32,000 nucleotides of DNA from Bellilinea caldifistulae (GTDB taxonomy: Bacteria > Chloroflexota > Anaerolineae > Anaerolineales > Anaerolineaceae), in assembly GCF_001306055.1 (NCBI RefSeq), contig NZ_LGHJ01000013.1:150001-182000 (forward strand), in the 5' to 3' direction. Position numbers and translations under genes: made by a program. Positions 9,757 through 32,000 of this stretch are shown here, in pieces. The number at the start of each line of letters is the position of its first letter. Position 1 is the first letter of the stretch. The notes beneath the pieces were generated by a model. It had not been told where the DNA came from. It ran no database searches and saw only the letters and a program-made list of their open reading frames with translations.

Positions 9757-11814
9757 ATGAACACCTCCTCCCGTACCTTACTGATCGTCCTTCTGGTTAT
9801 CATTGTCCTGTGTATATGCCTGTGCGGCGCAGCCGTGCTGACCGGCGCTGTGGGCTTTCTGATTTTCAATTCCGAATCGAACAGCCCAGATAATTCACCT
9901 GTCTTTGAATTCACACCCCCTTTCGAGGACTGGCGCGAGATCATCCCCACCCTGCCGGATATTGATCCTCCCCCGCTGGTTGCTACCCCGTCCGGTCAAC
10001 CGGCCGGCGACGGCGCTTATGAGACCCTGCGCAGCCTCCAACAGGCTTTGGTCCCGGTCAATGACCCGCGAGAACTGGCCCAGCGGCTGGGCGGCAAAGG
10101 CGAAATTCCCGAAACCGTCCCCTATGGCGGTCCCTTTCAGGTTGGCGATCGCAAGAAGTTCTGGGTCACCAATGTGGATACCACCGAGAACTTTCAGGTC
10201 GAAGCCGTGCTGCGCTATGTAACGGATAGCGCCTATTTCTGGATCGAGGACGGTGTATCCTACAACCAATCTGCCCTGCGCCGTCTTGCCGAAACCTTCA
10301 ATGATCAAATTGTGCCGACCAATCGCGAATTTTTCGGGATGGAGTGGAACCCGGGCGTAGATAACGACCCACGTTTATTCGTACTCTACACGCGCGGCGC
10401 CGGCCGGAACATTGCCGGTTACTTTTCCTCGGCCGATTCTGTGCATCCCCTGGCGCACCAGTACTCCAATGCCCACGAAATGTTCATCCTCAGCGCCGAT
10501 AACGCCGGACTGGAGGAGGAATTCACCTACGGTGTGTTGGCGCATGAATTTCAGCACATGATTCACTGGTACCGCGACCGCAACGAAGAAACCTGGCTGA
10601 ACGAAGGTTTCTCCGAACTGGCTGCTTTTCTCAACGGATACGACCCCGGTGGTTTTGATTTCATCTTCTCGACGAATCCCGATCACCAGCTCAACGACTG
10701 GCCAACCGACTCAAGCGCCACCACCCCTTATTATGGCGCATCCTTCCTGTTCGTCAATTACTTCCTTGAAAGATTTGGCGAAGAAGCCACCAAATCGTTG
10801 GTTGCCCATCCCGATAACGGGCTGGACAGCATAGATACCGTGCTGGCCAATTTGAATGAGATTGACCCGCTGACCGGTCAACTCATTCAGGCCGACGATG
10901 TCTTTGTGGATTGGACACTGACCAATTACCTGAATGACCCCCAAATTGGCGACGGCCGCTTTGCCTACACCCAATACCGCAGCGCTCCAACCGTCAACGA
11001 TACCGAAGTATTCACCGCCTGCGACGGACGCAGCCAGAGCCGCACAGTCCGTCAATATGGAGCGGATTACATCCGCTTCAACTGTCAGGGCAGTTTCACA
11101 CTCGAATTTCAGGGCAGCAGCGAGGTCGGAGTTCTTCCAACCGATGCCTATTCGGGTGATTACGCTTTCTGGTCAAATAAAGGCGATGAATCAAACATGA
11201 CCCTGACCCGTGAGTTTGATTTTACCGGGGTCAGCGCACCCATTCAACTTTCCTACCGAACCTGGTATGATCTTGAGGAGGATTACGACTACCTGTACCT
11301 GGTCGCCTCTGAGGATAACGGCCAGACCTGGCAAATCCTGACCACGCCTTCCTGCACCACCGAAAACCCCTCCGGAAACAGTTATGGCTGCGGCTACAAC
11401 GGTAAAACCAACGGCTACATCCAGGAGATAGTTGATCTTTCCCGTTTTGCTGGTCAGAAAGTTTTACTGCGCTTTGAATACGTAACCGATGCAGCCGTGA
11501 ACGGCGAGGGATTGCTGCTGGACGATGTGTCCATTCCGGCAATCAACTACTTCACCGATTTTGAGACCGATGAAGGCGGCTGGCAGGCCAACGGCTTTGT
11601 GCGCATTCAAAACCGTCTACCGCAGACCTTCCGCCTTTCGCTGATTTACCTCGGTTCAAACCCGCGAGTGGAGTACCTGACGGTCGCTCCCAGTCAGTCC
11701 TTGCGTCACACGGTTGATCTGGAAACCCCAACTGAACCGGTGGTTCTGGTGGTCAGCGGGACAACCCGCTTTACCCGCCAACCAGCCTCCTACACCTTCA
11801 GCGCTCAACGGTAA
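9757..11814 (+). CDS. Membrane-anchored extracellular zinc metalloprotease (gluzincin, MA clan) with C-terminal beta-sandwich domain
   Basis: N-terminal TM anchor LLIVLLVIIVLCICLCGAAVLTGAVGFLIF. HEFQH at 10543-10557 is followed by WLNEGF, with its Glu codon at 10603-10605. The C-terminal segment YDYLYLVASEDNGQTWQIL...VLLRFEYVTDAAVNGEGLLLDDVSI resembles the InhA/MAM-like domains of secreted proteases. Confidence 0.8.
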   Translation: MNTSSRTLLIVLLVIIVLCICLCGAAVLTGAVGFLIFNSESNSPDNSPVFEFTPPFEDWREIIPTLPDIDPPPLVATPSGQPAGDGAYETLRSLQQALVPVNDPRELAQRLGGKGEIPETVPYGGPFQVGDRKKFWVTNVDTTENFQVEAVLRYVTDSAYFWIEDGVSYNQSALRRLAETFNDQIVPTNREFFGMEWNPGVDNDPRLFVLYTRGAGRNIAGYFSSADSVHPLAHQYSNAHEMFILSADNAGLEEEFTYGVLAHEFQHMIHWYRDRNEETWLNEGFSELAAFLNGYDPGGFDFIFSTNPDHQLNDWPTDSSATTPYYGASFLFVNYFLERFGEEATKSLVAHPDNGLDSIDTVLANLNEIDPLTGQLIQADDVFVDWTLTNYLNDPQIGDGRFAYTQYRSAPTVNDTEVFTACDGRSQSRTVRQYGADYIRFNCQGSFTLEFQGSSEVGVLPTDAYSGDYAFWSNKGDESNMTLTREFDFTGVSAPIQLSYRTWYDLEEDYDYLYLVASEDNGQTWQILTTPSCTTENPSGNSYGCGYNGKTNGYIQEIVDLSRFAGQKVLLRFEYVTDAAVNGEGLLLDDVSIPAINYFTDFETDEGGWQANGFVRIQNRLPQTFRLSLIYLGSNPRVEYLTVAPSQSLRHTVDLETPTEPVVLVVSGTTRFTRQPASYTFSAQR

Positions 11815-13207: not shown

Positions 13208-13237
13208 TTGACGGATAAAGCAAAAGTATTGTACACT
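13208..13237 (+). promoter_or_regulatory. Candidate promoter abutting the transglutaminase start codon
   Basis: TTGACG (13208-13213), an 18-nt spacer, TACACT (13232-13237), then 6 nt to ATG 13244. The TTG used as ORF start in the track is the -35 hexamer. Confidence 0.45.
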
Positions 13238-13243
13238 AAAATC

Positions 13244-15595
13244 ATGCTCAACAACTCAAAACGCTGGTGGGATCTTTTATCGGTATCCCTTTTCCTGGCA
13301 GCGTTAATTACCGTTACCTACCGATTAGCGGATACCCGCTGGACCGATCATCTTGAAATTGTGATTGGACTGGCTTTTATCGGTGCGTTATTGGGTCTGG
13401 CTCTGGGGTACAGCCGGTTCAGCCCTCAAACAGTCGGGGTTTTCGGCCTGATATTCACCCTCTTTTTTGTCACCTGGCAATTGGGGGAACTGACTCCCAG
13501 CAACTACATCTGGTTAGAGCGTTTGTGGCTGCTGGGTGACCGGATGTGGCAAAATCTGGTTCTCTTTTTACGAAACCAGCCGCTCAACGACTCCATCCTC
13601 TTCCTTGCCAACATGGCGCTGCTTTTTTGGCTGGTCGGCATATCCACTGGTTACCAGCTCACCCGCTATGGAAAGCCATGGCAGGGATTGATTGTTTTAG
13701 GAATTGCGCTGGTAGTCATTGATCTCTATCATCCTCCGCTGGCACAGAGCGGTGTGGCGACCGGCGTATTTGCGGTTTTGGCGTTGCTCCTGTTCAGCCG
13801 CCTGAATTACCTCAAAAACGCCCGCCAATGGGAAGATGAACAAATTGGCGTGGACACCGACACCGGATTCAATCTGATTCGCAGCAGTTTGATCATTCTG
13901 ATCGTGGTGGTGTTTTTCGCCTGGAACGCTCCCCGGATCGTGCGCGCCGTGGTACCCAACACCCCCGAACGGCAGCGAATGATTCAATCCCTGCAATCCC
14001 TGCGGGAACGTTTTCAAAACGTGACTAACCCGTTGAGAGGTTCGGTTGCCGTGCCGGATGAATTTTATGCGGATGAGTATGCCCTTGGAACCGGCAGCCA
14101 GTTGACCGACGCAACCGTCTTTACCGTTCAAGCCAGTATCACTCAAAGAATTGGAGTGCCTTACTACTGGCGAATTCGCAGTTATGATACCTATGAGAAT
14201 GGACGTTGGGAAAGCACCGTAACGAACCGACAGCCGTTGCGGGTCGGCTCACCCCCGCTGGATTATCCCCAATATAGTCGGCGACTTAACGTACGTTTCG
14301 ACTTCCGTCCGGTACGCAACCTGAGCATGGTCTACGTGCCGGGTTTGCCCGTTGGGATTAACCACAATGTTGAACTGATTTATGACGGCTCAGAGCTCGG
14401 AAAGATTGAAGATGTAGTGACCGTCCTGGCTGACCCCGATATCCCACCCGGCAGCACGTATCAGGTAACCTCTTCGATTGCTTCTCCAACCATTGCTGCC
14501 ATGCGCGAAGCCGGCGAGGAATACCCTCAATGGGTAACCGACCGCTATCTGCAATTACCTCCGGATTTACCCCAAAGTATCCGCGACCTTGCTGCGGAAA
14601 TCACCGCTGGGCTGGAAACACCCTACGATAAAGCCGCCGCCATCACTCTCTGGTTGAGAGAAAATATCGCCTATTCGGCAACCATCCCCAATCCCCCAGC
14701 CGGAAGAGACCCGGTGGAATGGGTGTTGTTCGAGCATAAACAGGCTTTTTGTAATTACTACGCATCGGCCGAGGTGCTGATGCTGCGTTCATTGGGTATT
14801 CCAGCCCGTTGGGTCATCGGCTACGCGCAAGGTTTTTTGGATGAAGAGGAAGACCTTTATTGGGTTCGGGACCTGGACCGCCACGCCTGGCCGGAGGTTT
14901 TCTTTCCGGGAATTGGGTGGGTGGAGTTTGAACCAACCGCTTTTCAGGCCGCGATTGAACGCCCCAGCGGTTCAAATGCCGAGGACCGCACTCCCTTGCC
15001 TCAGCCCAATCCTAATCAACCGCAACTACTGGATGATTTCGAAGAAGCCACCCAACCGGAAGAAAATCAGGCTTCTTCCCCGATCAATTTGCAGACCACC
15101 CCCCTGGTCAGCGCCACACTGATCATCTTGGGTCTTCTCATCGCAGGAATAATCATTTTCTTGCTAGCAGCCAATGGCCGTCGCCGGCGCTGGTTTCCTC
15201 AACAGAGTTTGCCGCTATTTTTGGAAACCAACCTGCGTAAACGAGGCTGGCGCATTCCTCGCTGGTTACAACAATGGTCTTATTACAGCCAGTTATCCCC
15301 CATCCAACGCTCCTTTTACAGCATCCATTGGCTCTGCCGATTGTTGAAAATTCCCATTTCCCCCGCTCAAACGCCAGCAGAACAAGTCCAAACCCTGATG
15401 CACTACTTACCGGAATGTGAGCCGGCTGCTCTTCAGTTGCTGCAAGAGTACCAGAAAATTGCCTACAGCCCTTACCCGGCGGATGCGGGCACCGCCCAAC
15501 AATCTGCCCGCCTGATTTGGAAACTTGCATTCCAAAAACGCGGTAAAATCATTCTGGCAAAGCTGAGAGGGAGGCCACTCGAAAGCAGCGCTTAA
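13244..15595 (+). CDS. TgpA-like membrane transglutaminase-domain protein
   Basis: An N-terminal block of about 6 TM helices. Transglutaminase core with Cys in QAFCNYYASAEVLMLRSLGIPARWVIGY and His in DRHAWPEVFFPGIGWVEFEPT. A late TM helix and a C-terminal cytoplasmic domain follow. The start could alternatively be TTG 13208. Confidence 0.85.
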   Translation: MLNNSKRWWDLLSVSLFLAALITVTYRLADTRWTDHLEIVIGLAFIGALLGLALGYSRFSPQTVGVFGLIFTLFFVTWQLGELTPSNYIWLERLWLLGDRMWQNLVLFLRNQPLNDSILFLANMALLFWLVGISTGYQLTRYGKPWQGLIVLGIALVVIDLYHPPLAQSGVATGVFAVLALLLFSRLNYLKNARQWEDEQIGVDTDTGFNLIRSSLIILIVVVFFAWNAPRIVRAVVPNTPERQRMIQSLQSLRERFQNVTNPLRGSVAVPDEFYADEYALGTGSQLTDATVFTVQASITQRIGVPYYWRIRSYDTYENGRWESTVTNRQPLRVGSPPLDYPQYSRRLNVRFDFRPVRNLSMVYVPGLPVGINHNVELIYDGSELGKIEDVVTVLADPDIPPGSTYQVTSSIASPTIAAMREAGEEYPQWVTDRYLQLPPDLPQSIRDLAAEITAGLETPYDKAAAITLWLRENIAYSATIPNPPAGRDPVEWVLFEHKQAFCNYYASAEVLMLRSLGIPARWVIGYAQGFLDEEEDLYWVRDLDRHAWPEVFFPGIGWVEFEPTAFQAAIERPSGSNAEDRTPLPQPNPNQPQLLDDFEEATQPEENQASSPINLQTTPLVSATLIILGLLIAGIIIFLLAANGRRRRWFPQQSLPLFLETNLRKRGWRIPRWLQQWSYYSQLSPIQRSFYSIHWLCRLLKIPISPAQTPAEQVQTLMHYLPECEPAALQLLQEYQKIAYSPYPADAGTAQQSARLIWKLAFQKRGKIILAKLRGRPLESSA

Positions 15596-15617: not shown

Positions 15618-17339
15618 TTGAGTGAAATCAAATCTGCTGTGCGGGGCGATCAACTGGCAGCAAATTTAGAAAATCTGCGGTCAGCCTGTTACGCCATTTA
15701 CAACTACCTCCAGGTCAATCGTCCTGCCGCCCTTCCACCGTCATTTTTTGAAACCGTATTTGGGATTACCGCCCTGGTCAAGAAAATTACGGCACAGTTT
15801 GAAGAGCTGGAGGAAGAACGCCGTAGTCTGACCGCGCTGGCCGGCATGGGGCAGGTGATCAACACCTCACTGGAATTGAACACCGTCCTCCAAATTGTTA
15901 TGGATACCATCATTCGGTTAACCGGCGCAGAACGCGGATTTCTGATGTTGAAGGATGACACGGGCAATCTGGTCACCCGGATTGCTCGCAACTGGGTTCA
16001 GGAATCGCTGAACACCACCGAATTGCACATCAGTTTTACGGTGATTGACCGCGTAGCCAGCGAAGGCTTACCCGTGCTGACCACCAACGCTCAGGAAGAC
16101 CCGCGTTTTGGAAAACAGGACTCGGTCATTGCCCACAACCTGCGCTCGATCATGTGTGTGCCGTTGAGAGTCAAAAGTGAGGTGACCGGTGTCATTTATG
16201 TGGATAATCGCATCCGCAGCGGCTTGTTCACTGCAAAACAGCTGGATTTACTGGCCGCTTTCGCCAATCAGGCAGCAGTTGCCATTGAAAATGCCCGCCT
16301 GTTTGCCTCGGTACAACGCAGCCTTGCCGAAGTAACCGAATTGAAAAGTTTGATGGACAAGGTGTTTGCCTCCATTGCCAGTGGAGTCATCACCGCGGAT
16401 ATTGACGGGAACATCTTGTTGTGTAACCGGGCAGCCGAACAAATCCTCAATCAGAGTGCCACGGGACTCGGCAGTCAAAAGCTGCAGCAAATTCTCACCT
16501 CGCTTTCCCCTGCCCTGATTCCAGAATTGCAACAAGTCCTTCAAACCGATCAGCCGGTATTGGGTCTGGAAATTTCACCGGCCATTGCCGGGCGTGGACG
16601 GATTGATTTGCGAATCAGCATCACTCCGGTCAAGGATGGTCAGCAACAGACACAGGGAGTTGCTCTTGTACTGGATGATATGACCGAGAAAAAATTATTG
16701 GAAGCCCAACGCCGATTGTTTGAAAAAATGGTTTCGCCGGCCGTCATCCGTCAGTTAAACCCGGATAGCCTGATTTTAGGAGGTCAGCGCAAAGAAATTA
16801 CCGTTTTATTTGCGGATATTCGCGGATTTACAGGCATCAGTGAGAAGTTATCTCCCGAAGAGCTCGTCTCCATTCTCAACCGCCACCTGGCCGCCGCTGC
16901 CGAGGCCATCCTGCAGGAAGAGGGCACGATTGATAAATTCCTCGGAGATGCCGTCATGGCCTGGTTCAATGCACCTGTGCGCCAGCCCGATCACGCTCTC
17001 CGGGCTGTACGGGCTGCCCTGCACATCCGCGATTCTCTTAAATCCCTTCATCAGGAATTACCACCCGAACAGCGGCTTTCCTTTGGAATTGGGATCCACA
17101 CCGGCGAAGCAGTTTTGGGACTTATCGGCAGCGAAAAACGCCTTGAATATACCGCCATTGGAGATTGTATCAACACCGCCAAACGGATTCAGGAAAATGC
17201 ACGCCCCAATCAAATCCTGGTCACGCAGGAAGTGATTGATCGTCTGGCTGGTTATGCGGCCTATCAACCGGTGGAAGCCATTCGGGCAAAAGGCAAACGT
17301 GAACCGGTTCAGGTTTACGAGATCAACTTCCTGGTTTAA
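15618..17339 (+). CDS. GAF-PAS sensor class III adenylate/guanylate cyclase
   Basis: GAF region (ERGFLMLKDDTGNL...VIYVDN). PAS region (ASIASGVITADIDGNILLCNRAAEQIL). Cyclase homology domain with metal Asp residues in VLFADIRGFT and KFLGDAVMAWF, and YTAIGDCINTAKRIQ. TTG start with AGGAAG upstream. Confidence 0.88.
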   Translation: MSEIKSAVRGDQLAANLENLRSACYAIYNYLQVNRPAALPPSFFETVFGITALVKKITAQFEELEEERRSLTALAGMGQVINTSLELNTVLQIVMDTIIRLTGAERGFLMLKDDTGNLVTRIARNWVQESLNTTELHISFTVIDRVASEGLPVLTTNAQEDPRFGKQDSVIAHNLRSIMCVPLRVKSEVTGVIYVDNRIRSGLFTAKQLDLLAAFANQAAVAIENARLFASVQRSLAEVTELKSLMDKVFASIASGVITADIDGNILLCNRAAEQILNQSATGLGSQKLQQILTSLSPALIPELQQVLQTDQPVLGLEISPAIAGRGRIDLRISITPVKDGQQQTQGVALVLDDMTEKKLLEAQRRLFEKMVSPAVIRQLNPDSLILGGQRKEITVLFADIRGFTGISEKLSPEELVSILNRHLAAAAEAILQEEGTIDKFLGDAVMAWFNAPVRQPDHALRAVRAALHIRDSLKSLHQELPPEQRLSFGIGIHTGEAVLGLIGSEKRLEYTAIGDCINTAKRIQENARPNQILVTQEVIDRLAGYAAYQPVEAIRAKGKREPVQVYEINFLV

Positions 17340-22249: not shown

Positions 22250-23086
22250 TTAGATCTTGCTGATCAATTCAATGTTAATCGCCTGAATGCCTCCACCACG
22301 TTCAGAGCGCGCCAGTTCCATTTCGAATATATAACTTCGGCTGGGCAGCACCGTTGGACGCACCGCTTCGGGTAAATTCGAGTCATGAAAAAAGGCGGTT
22401 GCGTAGGGTGAATCCGGGTGGCGTGTATCGGTGAGCCATAAGCCGGGAGCTATGGATTTCAGGTAACGCATAAACCCATAACCCTGTTCGCTGTGCCAGT
22501 AACACCATCCTCGTACCCGTGACCCAACCTCGCCCCACTCCGGTTGATCGGTTTTGTAATTGTTGACCGGGATCAAATTTGGAATCAGGTAACCGGAGAT
22601 GAAAAAATCTGCTTCATGGCGCAGTTTGCTGGAAACATTGTCCAGCGCCATGACTTCTACCCTGCAGCCCTTATCCTGCAAGGCGCGCACCACCTGAACA
22701 AAATCGCCATCACCGCTGGCAAGCAGTACCCGATCAAGTTTGGCAGATTGCAGAAGCGCGTCCACAGCCAGATCTAAATCTGCGTTGGCTTTACCATAAC
22801 GGTTGCCGCTTTCATCCTCAAACCATTGGATTTCCTTGACAATCACCTTATAGCCCATATCCCGCAAGGCTGAATGAAAATTTTGAGTGCCTTTGCGGTA
22901 CACTTCATCCCATTCCGCCCGCTCGCGATCATAACTTACATAGGCATTCATACGCACAGGCTCGGCAAAATCACGACAGGCAAATTCTCGCAGTACATCG
23001 TACTGCATTTTCGATCCCCCGTTATTATAGATATAGGCTACATCCACATAAATACCGACTTTACTGCCACCACCTGATATGGGCAT
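22250..23086 (-). CDS. NYN (LabA/DUF88-like) nuclease domain fused to a cold-shock-like OB domain
   Basis: NYN motifs VGIYVDVAYIY and LLASGDGDFVQVV. The C-terminal region RVRGWCYWHSEQGYGFMRYL...TAFFHDSNL...YIFEMELARSERGGGIQAINIELI resembles a CSD with an insertion. ATG 23086 has AGGAGA 5 nt upstream, so the ORF-track start 23131 was rejected. Confidence 0.75.
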   Translation of the reverse strand: MPISGGGSKVGIYVDVAYIYNNGGSKMQYDVLREFACRDFAEPVRMNAYVSYDRERAEWDEVYRKGTQNFHSALRDMGYKVIVKEIQWFEDESGNRYGKANADLDLAVDALLQSAKLDRVLLASGDGDFVQVVRALQDKGCRVEVMALDNVSSKLRHEADFFISGYLIPNLIPVNNYKTDQPEWGEVGSRVRGWCYWHSEQGYGFMRYLKSIAPGLWLTDTRHPDSPYATAFFHDSNLPEAVRPTVLPSRSYIFEMELARSERGGGIQAINIELISKI

Positions 23087-23202
23087 ATATTCTCCTGAAC
23101 ACAGATATCTACGGAAAGTTTCATCCCCCAATAGGGGGGATTAATCACACCAAAATTTTATAATTTTTACACAGTTCAAAGGTATATTTTTTAGTTGCTC
23201 AA

Positions 23203-23325: not shown

Positions 23326-26082
23326 TTAAATTGATTCTTTTCTGCGCTGCACCCCCTTGAAAATTTCCACCGCAATAAAAACGAGCGTACTCAACCCAAA
23401 GCTTACCAGCAAATCCTCTGCCGGCAGCGCACGGGTATTGAACACATTCTGCAAAAATGGAACGTACACCACCGCCATTTGCAAGGCGAATGTCAACAAG
23501 ACCGCTCCCAGAAGAGACTTGTTTGAGAACAAGCCGATTTGAAACAGCGAATAGCGATTGGACCGGGTCGCCAGGACGTTCCCCATTTGCGCCAGAGTGA
23601 GGGTAGTGAATACCATCGTCTGCCAGGTTTCCGTCCTGCCGGTATTCAAAGCCCACAAGCCTGCCGCCAGTGAAACCAACCCCATCCACAGTCCAATCCA
23701 TAAAATATCCCGCGCCATCCCTCTCGCAAAGACATTCTCCTTCGGGGGGAAAGGCTTGCGCTTCATTGCATCCCGCTCAGCCGGTTCCACCGTTAGCGCC
23801 AGCCCCGGTAAACCGTCGGTCACAAGGTTGACCCATAAAATCTGAATCGGGGTCAGCGGGAGGGGCATTCCCAAAAACGGCCCGGCCAGCATCACCCAGA
23901 TTTCACCGGCATTGGAGGTCAATGTGTACTTGATAAATTTACGGATATTGTCGTAAATCCGCCGACCTTCCTCGATGGCGGCTACGATGGTTGCAAAGTT
24001 ATCGTCCAGCAAGACCATATCCGCCGCTTCTTTGGAAACATCGGTACCGGTGATTCCCATGGCAACCCCAATATCGGCTTTCTTTAGCGCCGGCGCATCG
24101 TTGACCCCATCTCCGGTCATTGCAACAATTTCACCTTTTTCTTGCAGTGCCTGCACGATTTTCAACTTATGTTCTGGAGAAACGCGCGCAAATACCGAAA
24201 CATGATCCAGCGCTTTTTTCAACTCTTCGAGGCTCATATTGGCCAGTTGCTGACCGGTAATCGCTTCGCCGTCAGGGGTGGTGATGCCCAGCTCGCGCGC
24301 AATGTGGAGTGCGGTCAAGGGATGATCTCCGGTAATCATGATTGGACGGACACCTGCCGATTTGGCGGTTGCCACGGCATCCTTAACCTCTGGACGGGCC
24401 GGGTCAATCATCCCCACCATCCCGATGAAAATTAAATTTTCTTCTTGAGGTTTTTCACATCCTTCCACCTGCTCCGGCGGACAAAGCCGGAAAGCCACTC
24501 CCAGCACCCGCATTCCCTTCATCGCCATTTCTTCATTGGCTTTTTCGATCCGCCGGCGCCATTCTGCATCGAGAGGCACACTCCGATCTTCAACCCACAC
24601 ACGGTTACATACTTCCAACAGGCTGTCCACCGCTCCCTTGGTGATGGAAATATATGGCTGCCAGATTTCGCTGGAAAGCACTCGCTCAGCCGTTTTTAAT
24701 ATCTGCGGTAACTCGTCTTGATTCAGGCGGTGAACAGTGGTCATCCGCTTGCGTTCCGAGTCGAAAGGCAATTCAGCCACGCGTGGCAGGGCTTTTTCCA
24801 GTTCATCCTTCCACAAACCCGCCCGTGCACCGGCGATTACCAGGGCACCTTCGGTCGGGTCGCCGACCGAAACAAAACCGCCGCGCGCACTTTCGTTGAC
24901 TTCGATGACCGCATCGTTGCACAATGTACCCCCAACCAGTAACAAAGCCACGGCTGGGTGTTCTACCAGCACCGGTTCAACTTTCCGCCGCTCGGGTATT
25001 GTCGGTGAATAATTTTGAACCTCCTCCAGAAAGTCAATCCGATTTCCAGCCACATCCACCACGGTAACCGTCATGCGGTTTTCGGTGAGGGTGCCGGTTT
25101 TGTCGGAACAAATCGTGGTTACCGAACCGAGGGTTTCCACAGCCGGTAATTTGCGAATCAACGCCCGGCGCTGGAGCATACGCTGAGCGCCAAGCGCCAG
25201 CGCAATGGTCACCACTGCCGGCAATCCTTCCGGTACGGCAGCAACCGCCATGCTGATGGCCGTCTGGAACATGATTCGGATCGGCTCACCGCGCAGGACT
25301 CCCAGTGCAAAGACAATCCCAACGATGACGAGGGCGGCCACAGCCAGCCCTTTACCCAGTTGTTCCAGACGTTTCTGGAGCGGCGTGGCTTCCTGCCCCA
25401 CCCCCTGAATCATATCGGCAATCCGTCCCAGTTCGGTTTGCATGCCGGTTTGCACCACCACTGCCGAACCACGTCCGTAGGTGGTCACCGTTCCCATGAA
25501 AACCATGTTGTGCTGGTCGGCCACCGGGATGTTCTCTCCCTTGATCACTTCAGTATTTTTTTCTACCGGCTCCGATTCACCGGTGAGAACTGCTTCCTGA
25601 ACCCGCAGGTTAACGGCTTCAATCAGTCGGCAATCAGCCGGAACCGCATCTCCCGCATCCAGCTGAATGACATCTCCCGGCACCAATTCACGGGAAGAAA
25701 TTTCAATCAAATGCCCATCCCGGTGAACTTTGACCTTTGGCGCCGCCATCTTTTTCAAAGCCGCCATCGCCCTTTCTGCACGGTATTCCTGCGTGAACCC
25801 CAACAACGCATTCAGCACCACGATGATCAGGATCACAATCGCATCGGTTACTTCGTGAAGCAGAATCGAAATGACCGCCGAGATAATCAGGATGACCACC
25901 ATGATCTCGGTTAATTGTTCCAGCAGTATTTTCCACGGGCTTTTCAAGCCCCGTTCAATCAATTCATTTGGGCCGTATTTTGCCCGCCTTTTTTCGACTT
26001 CTGCAGTGGTCAGACCATGCTTCAGGTCGGTTGAGAGTTCCGACTCAATTTCGTCGAGAGATTTCGAGTACCAGTTTTTCAT
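23326..26082 (-). CDS. P2A-type (SERCA/PMR1-like) cation-transporting ATPase, probable Mn2+ or Ca2+/Mn2+ exporter
   Basis: Motifs TGES (LTGESEPV), phosphorylation site [15 protein letters not shown] and [13 protein letters not shown]4 has VPEGLPAV and TM6 has [17 protein letters not shown] ribosome-binding site. The gene is preceded by a Mn2+ riboswitch. Confidence 0.92.
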
Positions 26083-26645: not shown

Positions 26646-27389
26646 ATGAATTGGGTGTTTCTCTCCCCCCATCTGGATGATGCCGTACTTTCGTGCGGCG
26701 GGTTGATTTACGAACTCATCCAAAACGGGGAGAAGGTGGAAATTTGCACAATTTGCGCGGGAGATCCCCCTCCGGGAGAACTTTCTCCCCTGGCCGAGAT
26801 GTTACATCAACGATGGGGGGTCACTGCCGCTCAATCTCAGGCCACTCGCCGGAACGAAGACCTGGCCGCCTGTCAGGTGCTCGGTGCAACGCCATTTCAT
26901 CTGGATATCCCCGATTGTATTTACCGCCGAAATCCGAACACCGGTGAGCCCCTCATCACCGCCAACGAGGCTCTCTTCCAACCCTTGCCGGCGGTGGAGT
27001 ATCCCCTTGCGGCTCAACTGGCACAGCAGTTAGCCGGTCACATTCCCACTGCCAGTCGGATCGTTTGCCCGTTGACCCTCGGCGGACATGTGGATCACCA
27101 CCTGACCCGCACCGCTGCTGAACAACTTGGCAGACCGCTTTGGTATTATGCCGACTACCCCTATTTACTGCAAGAATCCGGAAAACTGCACGAATATTTA
27201 TCCCCCGCATGGCGAAACCATGAAATTGCCATATCTTTATGCGGCTGTCGGGCGTGGCAGGATGCAATTGCCTGCTACCAATCCCAAATCAGTACTTTCT
27301 GGTCAGGCACCGAGGAAATGAGAAAAGCCATCTCTCATTACTGGCAAAAAGGCGGAGGAAGCACCCTCTGGGAAGCGTCATCATCCTGA
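26646..27389 (+). CDS. PIG-L/LmbE family N-acetylglucosaminyl deacetylase
   Basis: N-terminal motif LSPHLDDAVLSCGG (PHxDD...GG) and zinc-ligand motif GGHVDHH. Confidence 0.85.
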   Translation: MNWVFLSPHLDDAVLSCGGLIYELIQNGEKVEICTICAGDPPPGELSPLAEMLHQRWGVTAAQSQATRRNEDLAACQVLGATPFHLDIPDCIYRRNPNTGEPLITANEALFQPLPAVEYPLAAQLAQQLAGHIPTASRIVCPLTLGGHVDHHLTRTAAEQLGRPLWYYADYPYLLQESGKLHEYLSPAWRNHEIAISLCGCRAWQDAIACYQSQISTFWSGTEEMRKAISHYWQKGGGSTLWEASSS

Positions 27390-27457: not shown

Positions 27458-27715
27458 ATGCAAGAGGTACAATCCTGCTGGCAAAAATGGGCAAATTTCC
27501 TTAAGGAAAGAAACCTTGAGGAAATTACAATCACCTTACTGGAAGCCGCCGGTCCGCTGAAAGTCCTTGCCGCCCAGTTTGTTTATGCCGGAATGCCGCT
27601 TCTTGAAACTTTTTCTCCCTCTAAAAGAGTCTGGTTCGAACTGGCTAACCTGTTGGAAGACAATCAGCGCAGCCAGAGTTTCATCGCGTACCTGCGCGGG
27701 GAGGTTGATGAATAA
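27458..27715 (+). CDS. Hypothetical small protein (85 aa), first gene of the uncharacterised operon
   Basis: An ORF with one central hydrophobic stretch (GPLKVLAAQFVYAGMPLL). Its stop TAA overlaps the next ATG by 1 nt (TAATG). Confidence 0.55.
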   Translation: MQEVQSCWQKWANFLKERNLEEITITLLEAAGPLKVLAAQFVYAGMPLLETFSPSKRVWFELANLLEDNQRSQSFIAYLRGEVDE

Positions 27716-28458
27716 TGGTTGATGCGATCATCGCACTGACGTTGATTGCGGTCACTGCCGGATTAATCCTGTTGTTGACCATCCAGCGCAATATCCTACG
27801 CAGTGAACTGCGTCAACTGCTGGCCTTTGAACGCCTTCGACAGGCAATTGGACTGGCAGTGGAAAACGGCACCCGCATTCACATCACCCTCGGCAAAGCC
27901 GGTCTGCCTGCTTCGACCAGCGCTGCCGGATTGACCGGTCTCACTACCCTGGAGCGGATTGCCCGGGTAAGCAGTATCAGCGACCGTCCTCCACTGGCTA
28001 CCAGCGGAGATGGCACGCTGGCGCTGCTCAGTCAGGATACACTGCGGGCGGCTTACCGTCAAATCAATCAGCTGGAATTGTATGACCCCAGTCGCGGCCG
28101 ATTGACCGGCCCCACCTCATTTTCTTACATTGCCGGAGCCTTGCCGGTTGCTGACAGCGAAAACGTTTCCACTCATCTGGCAATTGGCAATTTTGGTCCT
28201 GAAATTGCTTTGTTGATGGAAGCCGGAGAACAGCAAGAATCCTTTACACTGGCCGCCACCGACTCGCTTAGCGCACAGGCTGCACTATTCACCAGCAGCC
28301 AGGAAACCCTGATTGGTGAAGAATTATTTGCCATCCCAGCTTATCTCAACAGTGGGCCGGTTTATACCGCCAGCCTGCAAGTCCAGGATATTCTTCGCTG
28401 GGGGGTGATTGTAACCATCATCGCAGGTTCCATTTTGAAATTGTTAGGGATTGTATGA
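27715..28458 (+). CDS. Hypothetical bitopic membrane protein (247 aa)
   Basis: N-terminal TM IIALTLIAVTAGLILLLTI and C-terminal TM WGVIVTIIAGSILKLLGI flank a Gly/Ala/Ser/Thr/Leu-rich domain of about 190 aa. GGGGAGG lies 11 nt upstream. I recognise no catalytic motif. Confidence 0.65.
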   Translation: MVDAIIALTLIAVTAGLILLLTIQRNILRSELRQLLAFERLRQAIGLAVENGTRIHITLGKAGLPASTSAAGLTGLTTLERIARVSSISDRPPLATSGDGTLALLSQDTLRAAYRQINQLELYDPSRGRLTGPTSFSYIAGALPVADSENVSTHLAIGNFGPEIALLMEAGEQQESFTLAATDSLSAQAALFTSSQETLIGEELFAIPAYLNSGPVYTASLQVQDILRWGVIVTIIAGSILKLLGIV

Positions 28459-29072
28459 GAGCGCCAATCTCCACTGCGATTGCAATTGCTACCGGGCTTC
28501 TGATTTTATTGGGGGCTTTTCTGCCCATACCCGTGTTGCTTCCCATCCGTCAAATCCTGCTGTCCTGGACAATCCCGGTAGCAGCCACAGCTGGCTTGAT
28601 CGCCATCCTCAACCTTCTGAGCGTTCACTGGCGTAAATTAAACTCCGCCCGCGAACGCGATTATTACAGCATCTTCCTTTTACTGGCTTTTGCGGCAACT
28701 TTTGCAGCCGGCCTGATCCTCGGCCCAACCGACCCCGACTTTCAAAAGATTGTCACCCACATCCAGTTTCCCGTAGAAGCCAGCTTAATGGGTGTGCTAA
28801 CCGTTACTCTGACTTATGCCAGCATTCGTCTTTTTCAACGAAAACGTGGATGGTTGGCGGTCTTATTCACGGCTAGCACCATCCTGTTCCTGATTTTGTT
28901 GAGCGGCTTTTTGAATATCTCCGAAAATATCCCCTTTGTAAAGGATTTTTTGGCCGCACTCAACACCCTGCCGATTGCCGGGGCAAGGGGTATTTTGCTG
29001 GGCATTGCCCTGGGTAGCATCACAACCGGTTTGCGTATCCTCATTGGTGCAGACCGGCCTTACAGTGGATAG
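28455..29072 (+). CDS. Hypothetical polytopic membrane protein (205 aa, about 6 TM)
   Basis: ATGA overlap with the preceding gene, with an AGGGA ribosome-binding site. There are six hydrophobic helices. Confidence 0.65.
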   Translation: MRAPISTAIAIATGLLILLGAFLPIPVLLPIRQILLSWTIPVAATAGLIAILNLLSVHWRKLNSARERDYYSIFLLLAFAATFAAGLILGPTDPDFQKIVTHIQFPVEASLMGVLTVTLTYASIRLFQRKRGWLAVLFTASTILFLILLSGFLNISENIPFVKDFLAALNTLPIAGARGILLGIALGSITTGLRILIGADRPYSG

Positions 29073-29076
29073 TCAT

Positions 29077-31470
29077 ATGAGCGAGATCATTTGTCCACAT
29101 TGCGGGGCTTCAAACCCAACCGATGCGATTGAATGTAAAAAATGTCATCGCTTTCTTTTCGAAACCCCCTCTTCCAGCGCTTTTCCGTTTTCCGGGGATG
29201 ATGATGACTGGTTGAAAAACCTGAGGGAAGACACCGAACCTCTACCCGAATCCGAAAGCGATGAAGCAAAATCAACCGAAACGCCTCCTTTCTCCGAAGA
29301 AGTTCCGGACTGGCTGGCACGCATCCGCCAGCGTTCACAAGAAGAGCTTGGGAGTGAAGAGGGACAGCCGGATGAAGCAGCCCAGGAAGAAGAACTACCC
29401 GACTGGTTGAAGGATGTGGAAATCAGTGCGGGTCATTCTGGGCCAGCCTCCGTTGAAAGCAGTGACGAGGAAGAACTCCCCCTGCCGGATTGGCTTTCAC
29501 TGGTCAGTTCAGAGGAAGAAAGCGAGACACCACCCTCGCCGCCCGCCCCAGCCGGTGAGGAAGAACTGGATATCAGCCAGGAGCAGTTACCGGACTGGTT
29601 GAAGGGTATTGAACAACCCGAAGAAACCGCCGAGGAAAGCCCCATTGCCCCGCAAGAAACCGCCGACTGGCTGACGGGTTTGAGCCTGTTCAAAGAAGAT
29701 GAGGAAGTTACCGAGCAACCCCCCTTCCCCGCCCCGGCGGAGGAAGAACCGGACTGGCTGCAATCTTTTGAAACATTTGAGACAACCCCAGCCGCCTTTA
29801 CAGAGGAACAACCATCCCCCGCCGAAGCGGACGAGGACTGGCTGAAGGCTTTTGAGTCCTTTGAAGGAACTTCCGAACCCACCTCGATTGAAAGCGAACC
29901 GCCGGGCACCCTCCCAGACGAAGCGTGGCTGCAAACCGCCGAAGAACTCCCCGCCGAATCCGCATTTCAGGAAGCCGGCGTTCAGGAATTGGAAAATTTG
30001 GCGGAAACCATTCCTGAAGAATTTTCCGCCGCAGAAGACCAGCTGACATCTCTCCCACCTTTTGAAGAGGGTCTTGCGGCGCTTTCCGATGAACTTCACG
30101 GCGTTTCAGCCGGGGAACAACCGGTAGAGCCAGAAGATTTCAGATCCTTCCTGGAGGAAATTCCCTCGCTAGGCGAAGGCGCTTCATCTGCTTTCATTTT
30201 GGAAACACCATCTGACCAACCTGCGGTTGAACAAGAATTTGAGGTCTCTCCCTTTATCAGCGAGGAGCTGCCCGAATGGTTCGATGAACAGGTCCTCGAA
30301 TCTTCCGTTGAACCTACCGGCGCTGCTCCCGAAGGTGAAGAGAGCCTCGAACCGGCCGAATTACCCGGCTGGCTGGAAGCCATGCGCCCCATCGAAGCGG
30401 TTGCACCGGGGCGGGTCGGTACCGATGAAGATCAGCGCATTGAAACCAGCGGTCCCCTTTCCGGTTTTCAGGGTGTGCTTCCGGCTGAAGCATTGATCAC
30501 CCAATACAGCAAACCTTCCATTTATTCCGCTCGTTTACAGGTCAACGAGAAACAGCGCAACTACGCCAATCTTCTGGAATCGATACTTCAACAGGAAAAA
30601 CAAGGCCATCCTTCCAGCGGGGTGAAAAGCGCAGGACCGCAGATCCTTGCTCGCATGTTGATCGGAATTTTGCTGGCAGTAACGATTTTATTCGTCCTGG
30701 TAGGCGGAGTTAGCCTTGCCTCACCGCCGGCTTTGTTTGCCCCAGAAAATGTGGCCTTCTTTTCTCAAATTCGTTCCCTAACTTCTTCCGCAGAATCGAA
30801 CGCCCCGATACTTCTCGCCGTGGATTTCGAACCAGCCCTGGCAGGCGAGATTTCCACGGTTGCCTCACCGGTGATGGACGATTTGATCCAATCCGGAAAA
30901 AGCATGGTGGTTGTCTCGATCAATCCCACCGGTGCTGTGCTGGCAGAAGAACTTTTGCTGAACAACGCTTCCGATGGACAAGTACTCAATTTGGGATATC
31001 TGCCCGGGGGAGTTTCTTCCATTGCGGCTCTGGCAAGCCAGCCCGCACTGGCTGCTTCGCGCGACCGGTTTGGAACCTACGCCTGGGATCGCCAACCCTT
31101 CCAGACCGTCCAACACATTACAGACTTTGCGGCGATACTGCTGGTTACCGACAACACCGACACCAGTCGTTTGTGGATTGAACAACTCACGCCGTTATTG
31201 GACAAAACCCCCCTGTTGGTCATCGCCAGCAATCAAGCCGCACCGATGATTCAACCTTACGTCCAAAACGGGCAGTCAGCGGGTATGCTGGCCGGGTTGC
31301 CCGGACTGGCTGCCTATCAGCAATTGAACGGACGAACCGTCGGGCTTTCTGCCGGCTATCTGGATGCCTACCAGGCCGGGTTGATGGTCATTGTCGTGCT
31401 GGTCCTCCTTTTTAGCCTGTATTATCTGGTGATGCAATTATTCAAGAAGCCCGAAATAAAGGGGAAATAA
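29077..31470 (+). CDS. Zinc-ribbon protein with long acidic PDWL-repeat region, two TM helices and an intervening domain of about 230 aa
   Basis: ATG 29077 lies 4 nt after the preceding stop; the ORF-track start 28975 overlaps the previous gene. It has a CPHC...CKKC zinc ribbon at the N-terminus, an acidic low-complexity region of about 400 aa with repeated DWL motifs, TM ILARMLIGILLAVTILFVLVGGV, a globular region, and a terminal TM GLMVIVVLVLLFSLYYLVMQLF followed by KKPEIKGK. Confidence 0.75.
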   Translation: MSEIICPHCGASNPTDAIECKKCHRFLFETPSSSAFPFSGDDDDWLKNLREDTEPLPESESDEAKSTETPPFSEEVPDWLARIRQRSQEELGSEEGQPDEAAQEEELPDWLKDVEISAGHSGPASVESSDEEELPLPDWLSLVSSEEESETPPSPPAPAGEEELDISQEQLPDWLKGIEQPEETAEESPIAPQETADWLTGLSLFKEDEEVTEQPPFPAPAEEEPDWLQSFETFETTPAAFTEEQPSPAEADEDWLKAFESFEGTSEPTSIESEPPGTLPDEAWLQTAEELPAESAFQEAGVQELENLAETIPEEFSAAEDQLTSLPPFEEGLAALSDELHGVSAGEQPVEPEDFRSFLEEIPSLGEGASSAFILETPSDQPAVEQEFEVSPFISEELPEWFDEQVLESSVEPTGAAPEGEESLEPAELPGWLEAMRPIEAVAPGRVGTDEDQRIETSGPLSGFQGVLPAEALITQYSKPSIYSARLQVNEKQRNYANLLESILQQEKQGHPSSGVKSAGPQILARMLIGILLAVTILFVLVGGVSLASPPALFAPENVAFFSQIRSLTSSAESNAPILLAVDFEPALAGEISTVASPVMDDLIQSGKSMVVVSINPTGAVLAEELLLNNASDGQVLNLGYLPGGVSSIAALASQPALAASRDRFGTYAWDRQPFQTVQHITDFAAILLVTDNTDTSRLWIEQLTPLLDKTPLLVIASNQAAPMIQPYVQNGQSAGMLAGLPGLAAYQQLNGRTVGLSAGYLDAYQAGLMVIVVLVLLFSLYYLVMQLFKKPEIKGK
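29197..30390 (+). repeat. Array of about 11 degenerate acidic (L)PDWL peptide motifs, coding repeat
   Basis: Strict Asp-Trp-Leu codons occur at 29206, 29308, 29401, 29488, 29593, 29665, 29752 and 29836. Degenerate copies are AWL (Trp codon at 29926), EWF (Trp 30277) and GWL (Trp 30370). The eight strict copies and the adjoining AWL copy are spaced 72-105 nt apart. Confidence 0.8.
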
Positions 31471-31475
31471 GCATC

Positions 31476-32000
31476 ATGGATGTTGATTTTGCCTGGACCG
31501 CGGTTGCTTTCATTCTCACCCTGTTAACCCTCAGTTATATTCTTGGGGATAATCCCCTCTTCCGTTTGGCTGCCTATTTATTTGTAGGTGTCTCTGCCGG
31601 ATACGTGGCCGTCATCCTGTTATTCGAGGTCATCGTTCCCCGTCTGGTTTCGCCGCTCATATTTGGCAGCCCTGCGGAAAAAATGCTCGCACTGGTACCG
31701 GCCGTGTTGAGCCTGTTGCTGCTTTTCAAATTATCTCCCCGGCTGACCACGCTGGGCAATCCCTCAATGGCGTTTCTGGTCGGCAGCGGTGCGGCGGTCA
31801 TCGTCGGCGGAGCGGTCAGCGGCACCCTTTTTGGACAAATCCGCGGCGCAATTCAGCCATTTGCGCTCTCCCAAAGCGGCAGCGGTTTGCAGACAGGCGG
31901 TCAGTTATTCGGTGGACTCATCCTGTTAATCGGTACAATCTCTACATTGGTTTACTTTCAATTCAGCGCCCGCCGAAAAGCCAATCAACAAACCAGGCGG
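31476..32000 (+). CDS. Hypothetical polytopic membrane protein, N-terminal part (3' end outside window)
   Basis: Not in the ORF track because no stop is reached. ATG 31476 lies 5 nt after the previous stop, with AAGGGGA upstream. The frame is open to nt 32000 and reads MDVDFAWTAVAFILTLLTLSYILGDNPLFRLAAYLFVGVSAGYVAVILLFEVIVPRL..., with at least 4 hydrophobic helices. Confidence 0.7.
   Translation, partial: MDVDFAWTAVAFILTLLTLSYILGDNPLFRLAAYLFVGVSAGYVAVILLFEVIVPRLVSPLIFGSPAEKMLALVPAVLSLLLLFKLSPRLTTLGNPSMAFLVGSGAAVIVGGAVSGTLFGQIRGAIQPFALSQSGSGLQTGGQLFGGLILLIGTISTLVYFQFSARRKANQQTRR

Follow-up and report, generated by a model that had tools for sequence, protein, structure and literature searches.

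A predicted membrane-tethered array of acidic Trp-Leu motifs encoded in a conserved eight-gene operon of Anaerolineae

We analyzed a 32,000-nucleotide stretch of the Bellilinea caldifistulae genome (contig NZ_LGHJ01000013.1, positions 150,001 to 182,000; hereafter the window) that encodes, close to its end, a 797-residue protein with an N-terminal zinc ribbon, a polyanionic arm carrying 11 acidic Pro-Asp-Trp-Leu (PDWL) motifs, and two transmembrane (TM) helices on either side of a folded domain (Table 1). The gene for this PDWL protein is the fourth of eight co-oriented, tightly packed genes. The motif, the protein family, the membrane tether, and the eight-gene operon appear undescribed; full-text literature searches for PDWL, "DWL motif", DUF6754, and GlmL with actin-like returned nothing relevant, and in public annotations the family appears as "hypothetical protein" or "zinc ribbon domain-containing protein" and, erroneously, as "ICP22 family protein".

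Results

The acidic arm contains a non-random array of 11 Trp-Leu motifs

The open reading frame (ORF) of the PDWL protein begins with an ATG at 29077, 4 nucleotides past the stop codon of the preceding gene, and extends to 31470; an identical protein is predicted by an independent gene call on the 3.7-Mb contig DF967971.1 (GCA_001050215.2). A sequence-only reading of the window had described about 11 PDWL motifs, in listed contexts, as an array of short linear motifs in a predicted disordered region. All 11 tryptophans in the first 440 residues (positions 45, 79, 110, 139, 174, 198, 227, 255, 284, 401, and 432) were found exactly there, each within a [DE/A/G]-W-[LF] motif. Their contexts are DDDDWLKNL, EVPDWLARI, ELPDWLKDV, PLPDWLSLV, QLPDWLKGI, ETADWLTGL, EEPDWLQSF, ADEDWLKAF, PDEAWLQTA, ELPEWFDEQ, and ELPGWLEAM. 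Successive tryptophans are separated by 34, 31, 29, 35, 24, 29, 28, 29, 117, and 31 residues; the regular spacing of 24-35 residues claimed from the first copy through the AWL copy thus holds for motifs 1-9, which are followed by a 117-residue gap and then by motifs 10-11. The Trp-free part of this gap (29943-30265, residues 290-396) contains the Phe look-alikes PEEFSAAE, PEDFRSFLEE, SSAFILE, and EVSPFISEE, which may be degenerate motif copies or alternative ones.

Shuffling of residues 29-445 excluded chance as the origin of the array. The arm contains 11 W[LF], nine [DE]W[LF], and six P[DE]W[LF] matches, compared to shuffle means of 1.46, 0.40, and 0.05, respectively, and none of the 20000 shuffles equalled any of the observed counts. 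At the DNA level, Tandem Repeats Finder detected no repeat in 29000-30600 and codon usage varies from one motif copy to another, which together indicate that the array is maintained at the protein level rather than being the product of a recent duplication. The composition of the arm is strongly biased, with 90 Glu, 47 Pro, 40 Ser, 37 Leu, 36 Ala, and 25 Asp among the 400 residues from 41 to 440, and the AT skew reaches its maximum (0.18) in 29001-30000. Two long antisense ORFs (158 and 170 codons; 29433-30099, minus strand) overlap the arm; these appear to be a side effect of the GAR/CCN-rich coding strand, and we do not regard them as genes.

An AlphaFold2 (AF2) model of the PDWL protein was built with a 78-sequence alignment. 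For most of residues 31-487 the predicted local distance difference test (pLDDT) value falls below 50, and there is no tertiary packing. Only short helices of 4-14 residues were modelled, located at or beside six of the 11 motifs (45-50, 78-91, 109-112, 141-144, 226-229, and 431-435). The description of the region as disordered, and of its repeats as short linear motifs as opposed to a folded repeat, agrees with this model.

Motif cores are conserved between drifting spacers throughout a large family

A word-indexed search identified 1430 homologues of the PDWL protein. An exhaustive search with the C-terminal 368 residues yielded 2941 family clusters at 50% identity, with E-values of 1e-30 or less for 951, and a scan of one genome per species placed relatives in at least 376 GTDB species. 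The best 80 of the 376 species matches are from Anaerolineae-type genomes, among them Bellilinea, Longilinea, Levilinea, Ornatilinea, Thermanaerothrix daxensis, and many metagenome-assembled genomes (MAGs); the exceptions within these 80 are one contig labelled Pseudomonadota and a small number of MAGs with the labels Chloroflexus sp. or Candidatus Aquidulcis. The Pseudomonadota-labelled member sits on a short MAG contig (JAZDOA010000025.1, 2369 bp); since almost every other match is labelled Anaerolineae or generic Chloroflexota, its placement most likely reflects a binning error and not horizontal transfer.

Across 1842 arm Trp sites from 120 homologues, the family consensus of the motif is [DE][DE]-[LVI/T]-P(63%)-D(61%)-W-L(73%)-x-x-[LFIM]-(R 23%), with an acidic residue at position -4 in 57% of sites and Leu, Phe, Ile, or Met at +4 in about 60%. 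When 77 homologues were aligned to the query, mean identity was 61% in the motif cores (positions -3 to +1) compared to 19% in the spacers, bearing out the claim that the core but not the spacer is conserved. The zinc ribbon, juxtamembrane segment, and outer domain had identities of 45%, 48%, and 43%, respectively; the motif cores are hence better conserved than the folded outer domain. W79-L80, W401, and W432 never vary, and conservation reaches at least 90% at W45, W110, W139, and W284. Motif 2 is the best-conserved copy and lies on an AF2 helix (78-91) with a pLDDT of about 77; residues 70-92, which span it, read PFSEEVPDWLARIRQRSQ. Motif 11, which lies within residues 424-442 (EPAELPGWLEAMRPIE), runs into the conserved juxtamembrane segment.

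We extended these comparisons to 177 full-length members of the family. The sequence-only reading had listed loss of the Trp-Leu core, or of copy number, among homologues as a possible refutation. The core is retained, with 89% of arm tryptophans followed by Leu, Met, Ile, Phe, or Val. Copy number did not hold constant, varying from 5 to 25 (median 15), but the modal spacing (20-35 residues) is conserved, as are the anchor copies (motifs 1, 2, 10, and 11); varying copy number with kept spacing and anchors is how arrays of short linear motifs usually evolve. Arm length ranges from 235 to 889 residues across the family and correlates with the number of tryptophans (r = 0.78). The arm is polyanionic in all members, with medians of 25% Asp plus Glu, 3.7% Lys plus Arg, 13% Pro, and a net charge of -96. 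We considered the short members (368-600 residues) as natural variants without an arm and rejected this, since all of them lack the zinc ribbon and start within the arm, as expected of truncated gene calls. Taken together, conserved islands of 8-10 residues separated by drifting spacers, a copy number that varies, and predicted disorder with helical propensity in places form the signature of a short-linear-motif array.

Domain architecture suggests a cytoplasmic arm tethered to the membrane

The other elements named in the sequence-only reading, i.e., the CPHC/CKKC zinc ribbon, two TM helices, and basic tail KKPEIKGK, are all present, and two further ones were missing from it: a folded alpha/beta domain between the TM helices and a conserved juxtamembrane segment. 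The zinc ribbon scored 20.4 bits against Pfam Zn_Ribbon_1 (PF13240), below the gathering threshold of 25, and those of homologues scored 17-24 bits against Zn_Ribbon_1, DZR, and DUF7577, each time under the cutoff. Its four cysteines are at least 90% conserved and form two CxxC knuckles, and AF2 modelled strands here with pLDDT values of 84-94. Apart from this sub-threshold ribbon, Pfam, NCBIfam, and PADLOC yielded no match to the protein, and the arm and the outer domain are covered by neither Pfam nor NCBIfam models.

The juxtamembrane segment has the family consensus D-R-E--GPLAG--GVLP-E ... Y-KPP-YS--L-VSEKQR--A-LLE, in which G459, P460, L461, and G463 are invariant, and contains an AF2 helix (491-508, pLDDT about 80). 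The alpha/beta domain of approximately 200 residues (556-751 in the AF2 model) was predicted mostly with pLDDT values above 90, as five parallel strands alternating with helices. Foldseek searches of the PDB with this domain recovered only generic Rossmann-like folds (e.g., RCK domains; best E-value 2e-3), and sequence searches of the PDB, using the single sequence and a profile, gave no meaningful match.

Lys and Arg residues precede TM helix 1 and follow TM helix 2, neutral or acidic residues line the sides facing the inter-TM domain, and there is no signal peptide. By the positive-inside rule, the N-terminal zinc ribbon and the acidic arm would lie in the cytoplasm and the alpha/beta domain outside. 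We infer from these sequence rules that the protein is bitopic-like with a cytoplasmic N-terminus, and the earlier placement of the arm in the cytoplasm, next to a four-Cys zinc ribbon, is in line with this prediction.

Table 1. Coordinates of the PDWL gene, its protein features, and the surrounding operon. Positions refer to the window unless indicated; per-copy conservation was calculated from the 77 homologues aligned to the query.
Feature	Coordinates	Strand	Description and evidence
Whole gene	29077..31470	+	Zinc ribbon, acidic PDWL arm, TM, alpha/beta domain, TM; 797 residues
Zinc ribbon	29077..29166	+	Residues 1-30; four Cys (C6, C9, C20, C23; CPHC...CKKC); Pfam sub-threshold and AF2
Polyanionic disordered arm	29197..30390	+	11 W-L motifs; sequence, shuffles, AF2, conservation
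Motif 1, DDDDWLKNLR (W45)	29197..29226	+	W 97%, L 94%, +4 L 80%, +5 R 88%; AF2 helix 45-50
Motif 2, EEVPDWLARIR (W79)	29299..29328	+	W79-L80 invariant; P 92%, D 88%, R 84%, I 85%, R 98%
Motif 3, EELPDWLKDV (W110)	29392..29421	+	W 93%; AF2 helix 109-112
Motif 4, LPLPDWLSLV (W139)	29479..29508	+	W 90%; AF2 helix 141-144
Motif 5, EQLPDWLKGI (W174)	29584..29613	+	W 89%
Motif 6, QETADWLTGL (W198)	29656..29685	+	W 67%, lowest of all copies
Motif 7, EEEPDWLQSF (W227)	29743..29772	+	W 88%; AF2 helix 226-229
Motif 8, EADEDWLKAF (W255)	29827..29856	+	W 81%
Motif 9, LPDEAWLQTA (W284)	29914..29943	+	W 94%, upstream P 93%
Motif 10, EELPEWFDEQ (W401)	30265..30294	+	W invariant, P 90%
Motif 11, AELPGWLEAMR (W432)	30358..30387	+	P430, W432, P438 invariant; M 90%, R 92%; AF2 helix 431-435
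Juxtamembrane segment	30391..30633	+	Residues 439-519; conserved, predicted cytoplasmic; conservation, AF2
TM helix 1	30634..30711	+	About residues 520-545, predicted in-to-out; hydropathy; AF2 helix 520-543
Alpha/beta domain	30712..31341	+	Residues about 546-755; Rossmann-like, predicted extracytoplasmic; AF2
TM helix 2 and basic tail	31342..31467	+	About residues 759-789, then predicted cytoplasmic KKPEIKGK; hydropathy; AF2 helix 759-789
Operon gene 1	27458..27715	+	85-residue protein, no family match (no Pfam); syntenic in 69 loci, absences all at contig ends
Operon gene 2	27715..28458	+	DUF6754 protein; TM, domain of ~200 residues, TM; Pfam PF20539, E-value 4e-26, 92.1 bits (cutoff 27)
Operon gene 3	28455..29072	+	205-residue polytopic membrane protein, 5 predicted TM helices; start overlaps upstream stop by 4 nucleotides
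Operon gene 4	29077..31470	+	Zinc-ribbon/PDWL protein
Operon gene 5	31476..32000, cut by window end	+	225-residue polytopic membrane protein, 6 predicted TM helices
Operon gene 6	Beyond window (L002:13087-14808 on source contig)		573-residue GlmL/MutL-family ATPase; PF13941
Operon gene 7	Beyond window		349-residue soluble protein; weak barrel-sandwich and KOW matches
Operon gene 8	Beyond window (L002:15922-16554 on source contig, ~4.4 kb past window end)		210-residue LPXTG protein

The gene is embedded in a syntenic operon with a possible link to the cell wall

Most junctions between the eight genes are overlaps or gaps of 4-9 nucleotides, implying co-translation. Gene order is identical in the six annotated loci. 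It is also identical by tblastn in 86 of 86 loci, collected with a six-sequence C-terminal alignment as query, wherever the contig extends far enough; for gene 5, synteny was observed in all 86.

Several of the encoded proteins are predicted to reside at the membrane. The DUF6754 protein begins and ends with a TM helix, and Arg25, Arg29, and Arg33 following the first of these indicate by the positive-inside rule that its domain probably lies in the cytoplasm, fastened to the membrane on either side; this makes it a further candidate receptor for the PDWL motifs. From its N-terminus, the 210-residue protein comprises an acidic tail, a TM helix, a linker rich in Thr and Pro, and finally a sorting signal (LPNTG, TM helix, RRLR), and it scored 18.8 bits against the LPXTG_anchor model TIGR01167 (cutoff 15.9). 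The presence of a sortase substrate in a Chloroflexota operon suggests that the system reaches the cell wall. We found no paralogy among the operon proteins, and homology of the outer domain of the PDWL protein to the neighboring DUF6754 domain was considered and rejected by BLASTP. PADLOC defence models matched none of seven of the eight operon proteins and gave only two weak low-complexity matches to the 210-residue protein.

A PIG-L family deacetylase gene (26646-27389) lies directly upstream, as in 31 of the 86 loci, and is not a fixed member; genes for phosphoglucomutase/phosphomannomutase, DUF389, and Bac_transf sugar-transferase proteins recur downstream on the source contigs. Taken as a group, these genes suggest a link to envelope glycan metabolism. 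Elsewhere in the window, a PMR1/SERCA-type Ca2+ P-type ATPase (23326-26082, minus strand; TIGR01522, 774 bits against an equivalog cutoff of 798) and an adjoining NYN-domain protein (22250-23131, minus strand) both look ordinary and unrelated to the array. Proteins with an N_BRCA1_IG Ig-like domain (2057-3268, minus strand), an InhA-like MAM domain (9757-11814, plus strand), a transglutaminase-like/DUF4129 architecture (13208-15595, plus strand), and a GAF-PAS adenylate/guanylate cyclase architecture (15618-17339, plus strand) likewise seem unconnected to the operon.

The operon encodes a conserved ATPase of the GlmL/MutL family

The sixth gene encodes an ATPase that scored 189.7 bits against PF13941 (cutoff 27) over residues 11-448. 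A genuine GlmL function was rejected for this protein on account of its low score against the NCBIfam GlmL model (83 bits, equivalog cutoff 475) and the absence of glutamate mutase genes (glmS/glmE) near the ATPase in the six annotated loci, where its neighbors are membrane proteins. The ATPase is much more strongly conserved than the PDWL protein, being 49-64% identical to its 120 listed relatives bar the five closest, compared to 30-35% for most relatives of the PDWL protein.

Beyond the span of the Pfam GlmL model, the ATPase has a beta-rich C-terminal extension of approximately 120 residues. Its C-terminal tail, a basic amphipathic helix, is conserved as D-A-A-R-R-R-D-[LM]-L-K-K-W-x-x-x-L-G-G among approximately 118 homologues (RRR 83-94%, W 91%). 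This tail is similar to the helices that target FtsA and MinD to the membrane, and alternatively could serve as a counter-charge to the acidic motifs.

Discussion

Each part of the sequence-only interpretation that lent itself to computation, from motif conservation to disorder and predicted cytoplasmic location, was supported. We propose that the arm, about 410 residues long, is a putative multivalent docking site for a folded partner, a reading to which we give an even chance. It would act as a membrane-tethered docking array, gathering many copies of one cytoplasmic partner beside an operon-encoded membrane complex. Each copy of the motif would form a Pro/Asp-capped amphipathic helical turn; Pro-Asp before Trp is a typical helix N-cap, and the sequence pattern and AF2 model thus suggest that Trp (0), Leu (+1), and the +4 hydrophobic residue share one face. 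The TM helices, the juxtamembrane segment, and the outward alpha/beta domain would in turn couple this cytoplasmic assembly to the envelope, including the sortase-anchored 210-residue protein.

Should the arm be such a docking array, our leading candidate for its partner is the operon ATPase, by analogy with peptide capture in the PilN-PilM, FtsN-FtsA, and FtsZ-FtsA systems; we make this identification tentatively and well short of calling it probable. The AF2 model of the ATPase is confident (pLDDT 91.5), and Foldseek matched it to ASKHA folds, including many FtsA and PilM entries and, after these, Hsp70 and glycerol kinase. Among the entries are three peptide complexes, i.e., Thermotoga maritima FtsA with an FtsZ peptide (4a2a), PilM with PilN residues 1-12 (5eou), and FtsA with an FtsN peptide (7q6i), with E-values of 8e-8 to 1e-6. 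Searches of Pfam, NCBIfam, and PDB sequences did not connect the ATPase to the FtsA or PilM families. Several observations weigh against this partner, or against the docking proposal more generally. The first Foldseek match, ahead of FtsA and PilM, is an acetophenone-carboxylase (hydantoinase-type) subunit (5l9w_B), and the template-modelling scores (TM-scores) to FtsA and PilM are only 0.40-0.48; the modelled structure therefore points to an ASKHA fold class and a precedent, not to an FtsA-like peptide binder. The 85-residue protein, the 349-residue protein, and the DUF6754 domain are other cytoplasmic candidates within the operon, and a partner encoded outside it is equally possible. In 1.39 million residues of six-frame ORFs from the 86 operon loci, i.e., neighborhoods rather than any whole proteome, the PDWL gene itself was the only one with at least two copies of the motif.

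We weighed five rival readings of the arm. The arm may mimic the FtsZ tail, which would make this reading a rival to the main proposal or a refinement of it, and bind the receptors of that tail (FtsA, SepF, MinC, or ZapD-like proteins) in place of an operon protein, so tethering or titrating divisome components at membrane sites of the filament. The C-terminal "grappling hook" of FtsZ has the consensus D-I-P-x-F-L-R, and the family consensus, acidic (-4), aliphatic (-3), Pro (-2), any residue (-1), aromatic (0), Leu (+1), can be aligned in register with the FtsZ peptide; FtsA is also among the nearest folds of the operon ATPase. The FtsZ C-terminal peptide, eight residues long, follows a disordered linker, keeps Asp, Pro, and Phe invariant, and serves as a binding site for FtsA, ZipA, SepF, ZapD, and SlmA (PMC9939409; PMC3418248). 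In comparisons confined to FtsZ of model organisms, however, the aromatic residue of the arm is always Trp and never Phe, and the conserved Asp at -1 has no counterpart in FtsZ. The surroundings of the operon in the 86 loci contain neither ftsZ nor any dcw gene, a tblastn search of the window and these loci with Bacillus subtilis FtsZ gave no match, and motifs as short as this one can arise by chance convergence. We consider such mimicry unlikely, and judge in the same way the possibility that the motifs are Trp-Leu stickers within a polyanionic spacer, condensing or gelling the arm itself, possibly via its own zinc ribbon, a polycationic partner, or divalent cations. Regularly spaced aromatic motifs, low complexity, and variable copy number would suit a sticker function, the zinc ribbon provides one small folded domain per chain as a possible receptor, and the tail of the operon ATPase is strongly basic and conserved. 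Yet a net charge of about -96 with just 3.7% Lys plus Arg should oppose homotypic condensation, and a motif specific over 8-10 positions (Pro, Asp, +4 hydrophobic) goes beyond what generic stickers need.

The extreme acidic, Pro-rich composition kept throughout the family, on arms of 235-889 residues, might also be explained by a passive polyanionic spacer or cation buffer, i.e., an entropic bristle, ruler, or cation brush in which the Trp-Leu motifs make intramolecular or membrane-proximal contacts only. This is highly improbable, as a passive spacer would hold neither motifs of 8-10 residues at 61% identity against 19% elsewhere nor invariant tryptophans at four sites. Insertion of the W-L-x-x-hydrophobic turns into the cytoplasmic leaflet, zipping the arm to the membrane, would account for the interfacial preference of Trp and for the amphipathic i, i+1, i+4 pattern, but the Asp/Glu flanks and near-absence of Lys and Arg would repel anionic bacterial membranes and the helices have just one to two turns; we find this hardly credible. 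Least credible of all is an ordinary folded repeat domain or low-complexity artefact. The periodicity of approximately 30 residues resembles that of some solenoid repeats, but AF2 gave pLDDT values below 50 without packing, the spacers vary in length and sequence, and no Pfam repeat matched; a folded repeat or recent duplication was rejected by the AF2 model and the absence of a DNA tandem repeat, and the shuffles count against an artefact. We also rejected an LC3-interacting (W-x-x-L) or kinesin "W-acidic" motif, given that the hydrophobic residues stand at +1 and +4, not at +3, and that these are eukaryotic systems.

If the docking proposal is carried further, the operon might constitute an unrecognised membrane-cytoskeletal machine present throughout Anaerolineales, in which FtsZ-tail-like hooks nucleate or cluster up to approximately 25 FtsA/PilM-like ATPases beneath the membrane while the outer domain and the sortase-anchored partner couple them to the wall. 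We regard this larger picture as doubtful. Were it true, its role could lie in septal junctions, filament integrity, or envelope growth of multicellular filaments, and in the PDWL protein bacteria would have their first endogenous tandem-motif nucleator comparable to WH2 arrays. A genuine resemblance to the FtsZ tail would bear on division and septal organisation in filamentous Chloroflexota.

The array also matters on less speculative grounds. In thousands of sequences from a whole bacterial order, selection maintains a sharply defined motif in combination with a membrane tether, a rigid operon, and an actin-fold ATPase nearby. It provides an entry point to an apparently order-wide, uncharacterised envelope system of Anaerolineae, filamentous bacteria that abound in digesters and sediments, and to the study of multivalency and disorder at bacterial membranes.

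Comparison with known systems

Very few endogenous tandem arrays of a single motif are known in bacteria, with most known bacterial arrays belonging to effectors that mimic host motifs. The best studied is CsoS2, through which the general principle of a disordered scaffold with repeated short motifs is already known in bacteria. Published work describes this alpha-carboxysome scaffold as largely disordered, with a repeated short motif whose multivalent binding of Rubisco and shell proteins drives assembly (bioRxiv 10.1101/708164; PMC11365436). Like CsoS2, the PDWL arm is bacterial, disordered, and built from a short conserved motif repeated between non-conserved spacers. CsoS2 is soluble and basic, however, and has unrelated motifs and partners, whereas the PDWL arm is polyanionic, predicted to be membrane-tethered, and equipped with a zinc ribbon and a putative partner; we found no sequence relationship between the two proteins.

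The FtsZ peptide resembles the array in having an acidic-aliphatic-Pro-x-aromatic-Leu motif located in or at the end of a disordered linker. It becomes helical on binding the ASKHA ATPase FtsA, and achieves multivalency through polymerisation, in contrast to the tandem repetition of the PDWL arm, which has 11 copies per chain compared to one per FtsZ subunit and Trp in place of Phe. The PDWL protein has no tubulin/FtsZ domain, its motifs are internal and repeated rather than C-terminal to a GTPase, and the protein is itself membrane-anchored. The relationship to FtsZ is a resemblance of sequence pattern only. PilN-PilM and FtsN-FtsA offer the parallel of a membrane protein whose short cytoplasmic peptide is captured by a cytoplasmic actin-fold ATPase from the same operon, as we suggest by analogy for the PDWL system. 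PilN and FtsN each carry one TM-adjacent peptide as opposed to an array on a 400-residue arm, and the sequence of the operon ATPase assigns it to the GlmL/MutL family (PF13941), not to the families of PilM and FtsA.

Further parallels come from systems in which acidic or repetitive proteins engage actin-like targets. In magnetotactic bacteria, the acidic, Glu/Pro-rich, repetitive protein MamJ links a membrane organelle to the actin-like protein MamK; unlike the PDWL protein, MamJ is not known to be integral to the membrane, and it has long repeats that extend over tens of residues. Secreted effectors such as EspF(U)/TccP, and the WH2 arrays of VopL and Spire, present short tandem amphipathic-helix motifs approximately 30-47 residues apart, acting multivalently on an actin-related target. 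These proteins are host-directed or eukaryotic, whereas the PDWL protein is endogenous and vertically inherited in a free-living bacterium.

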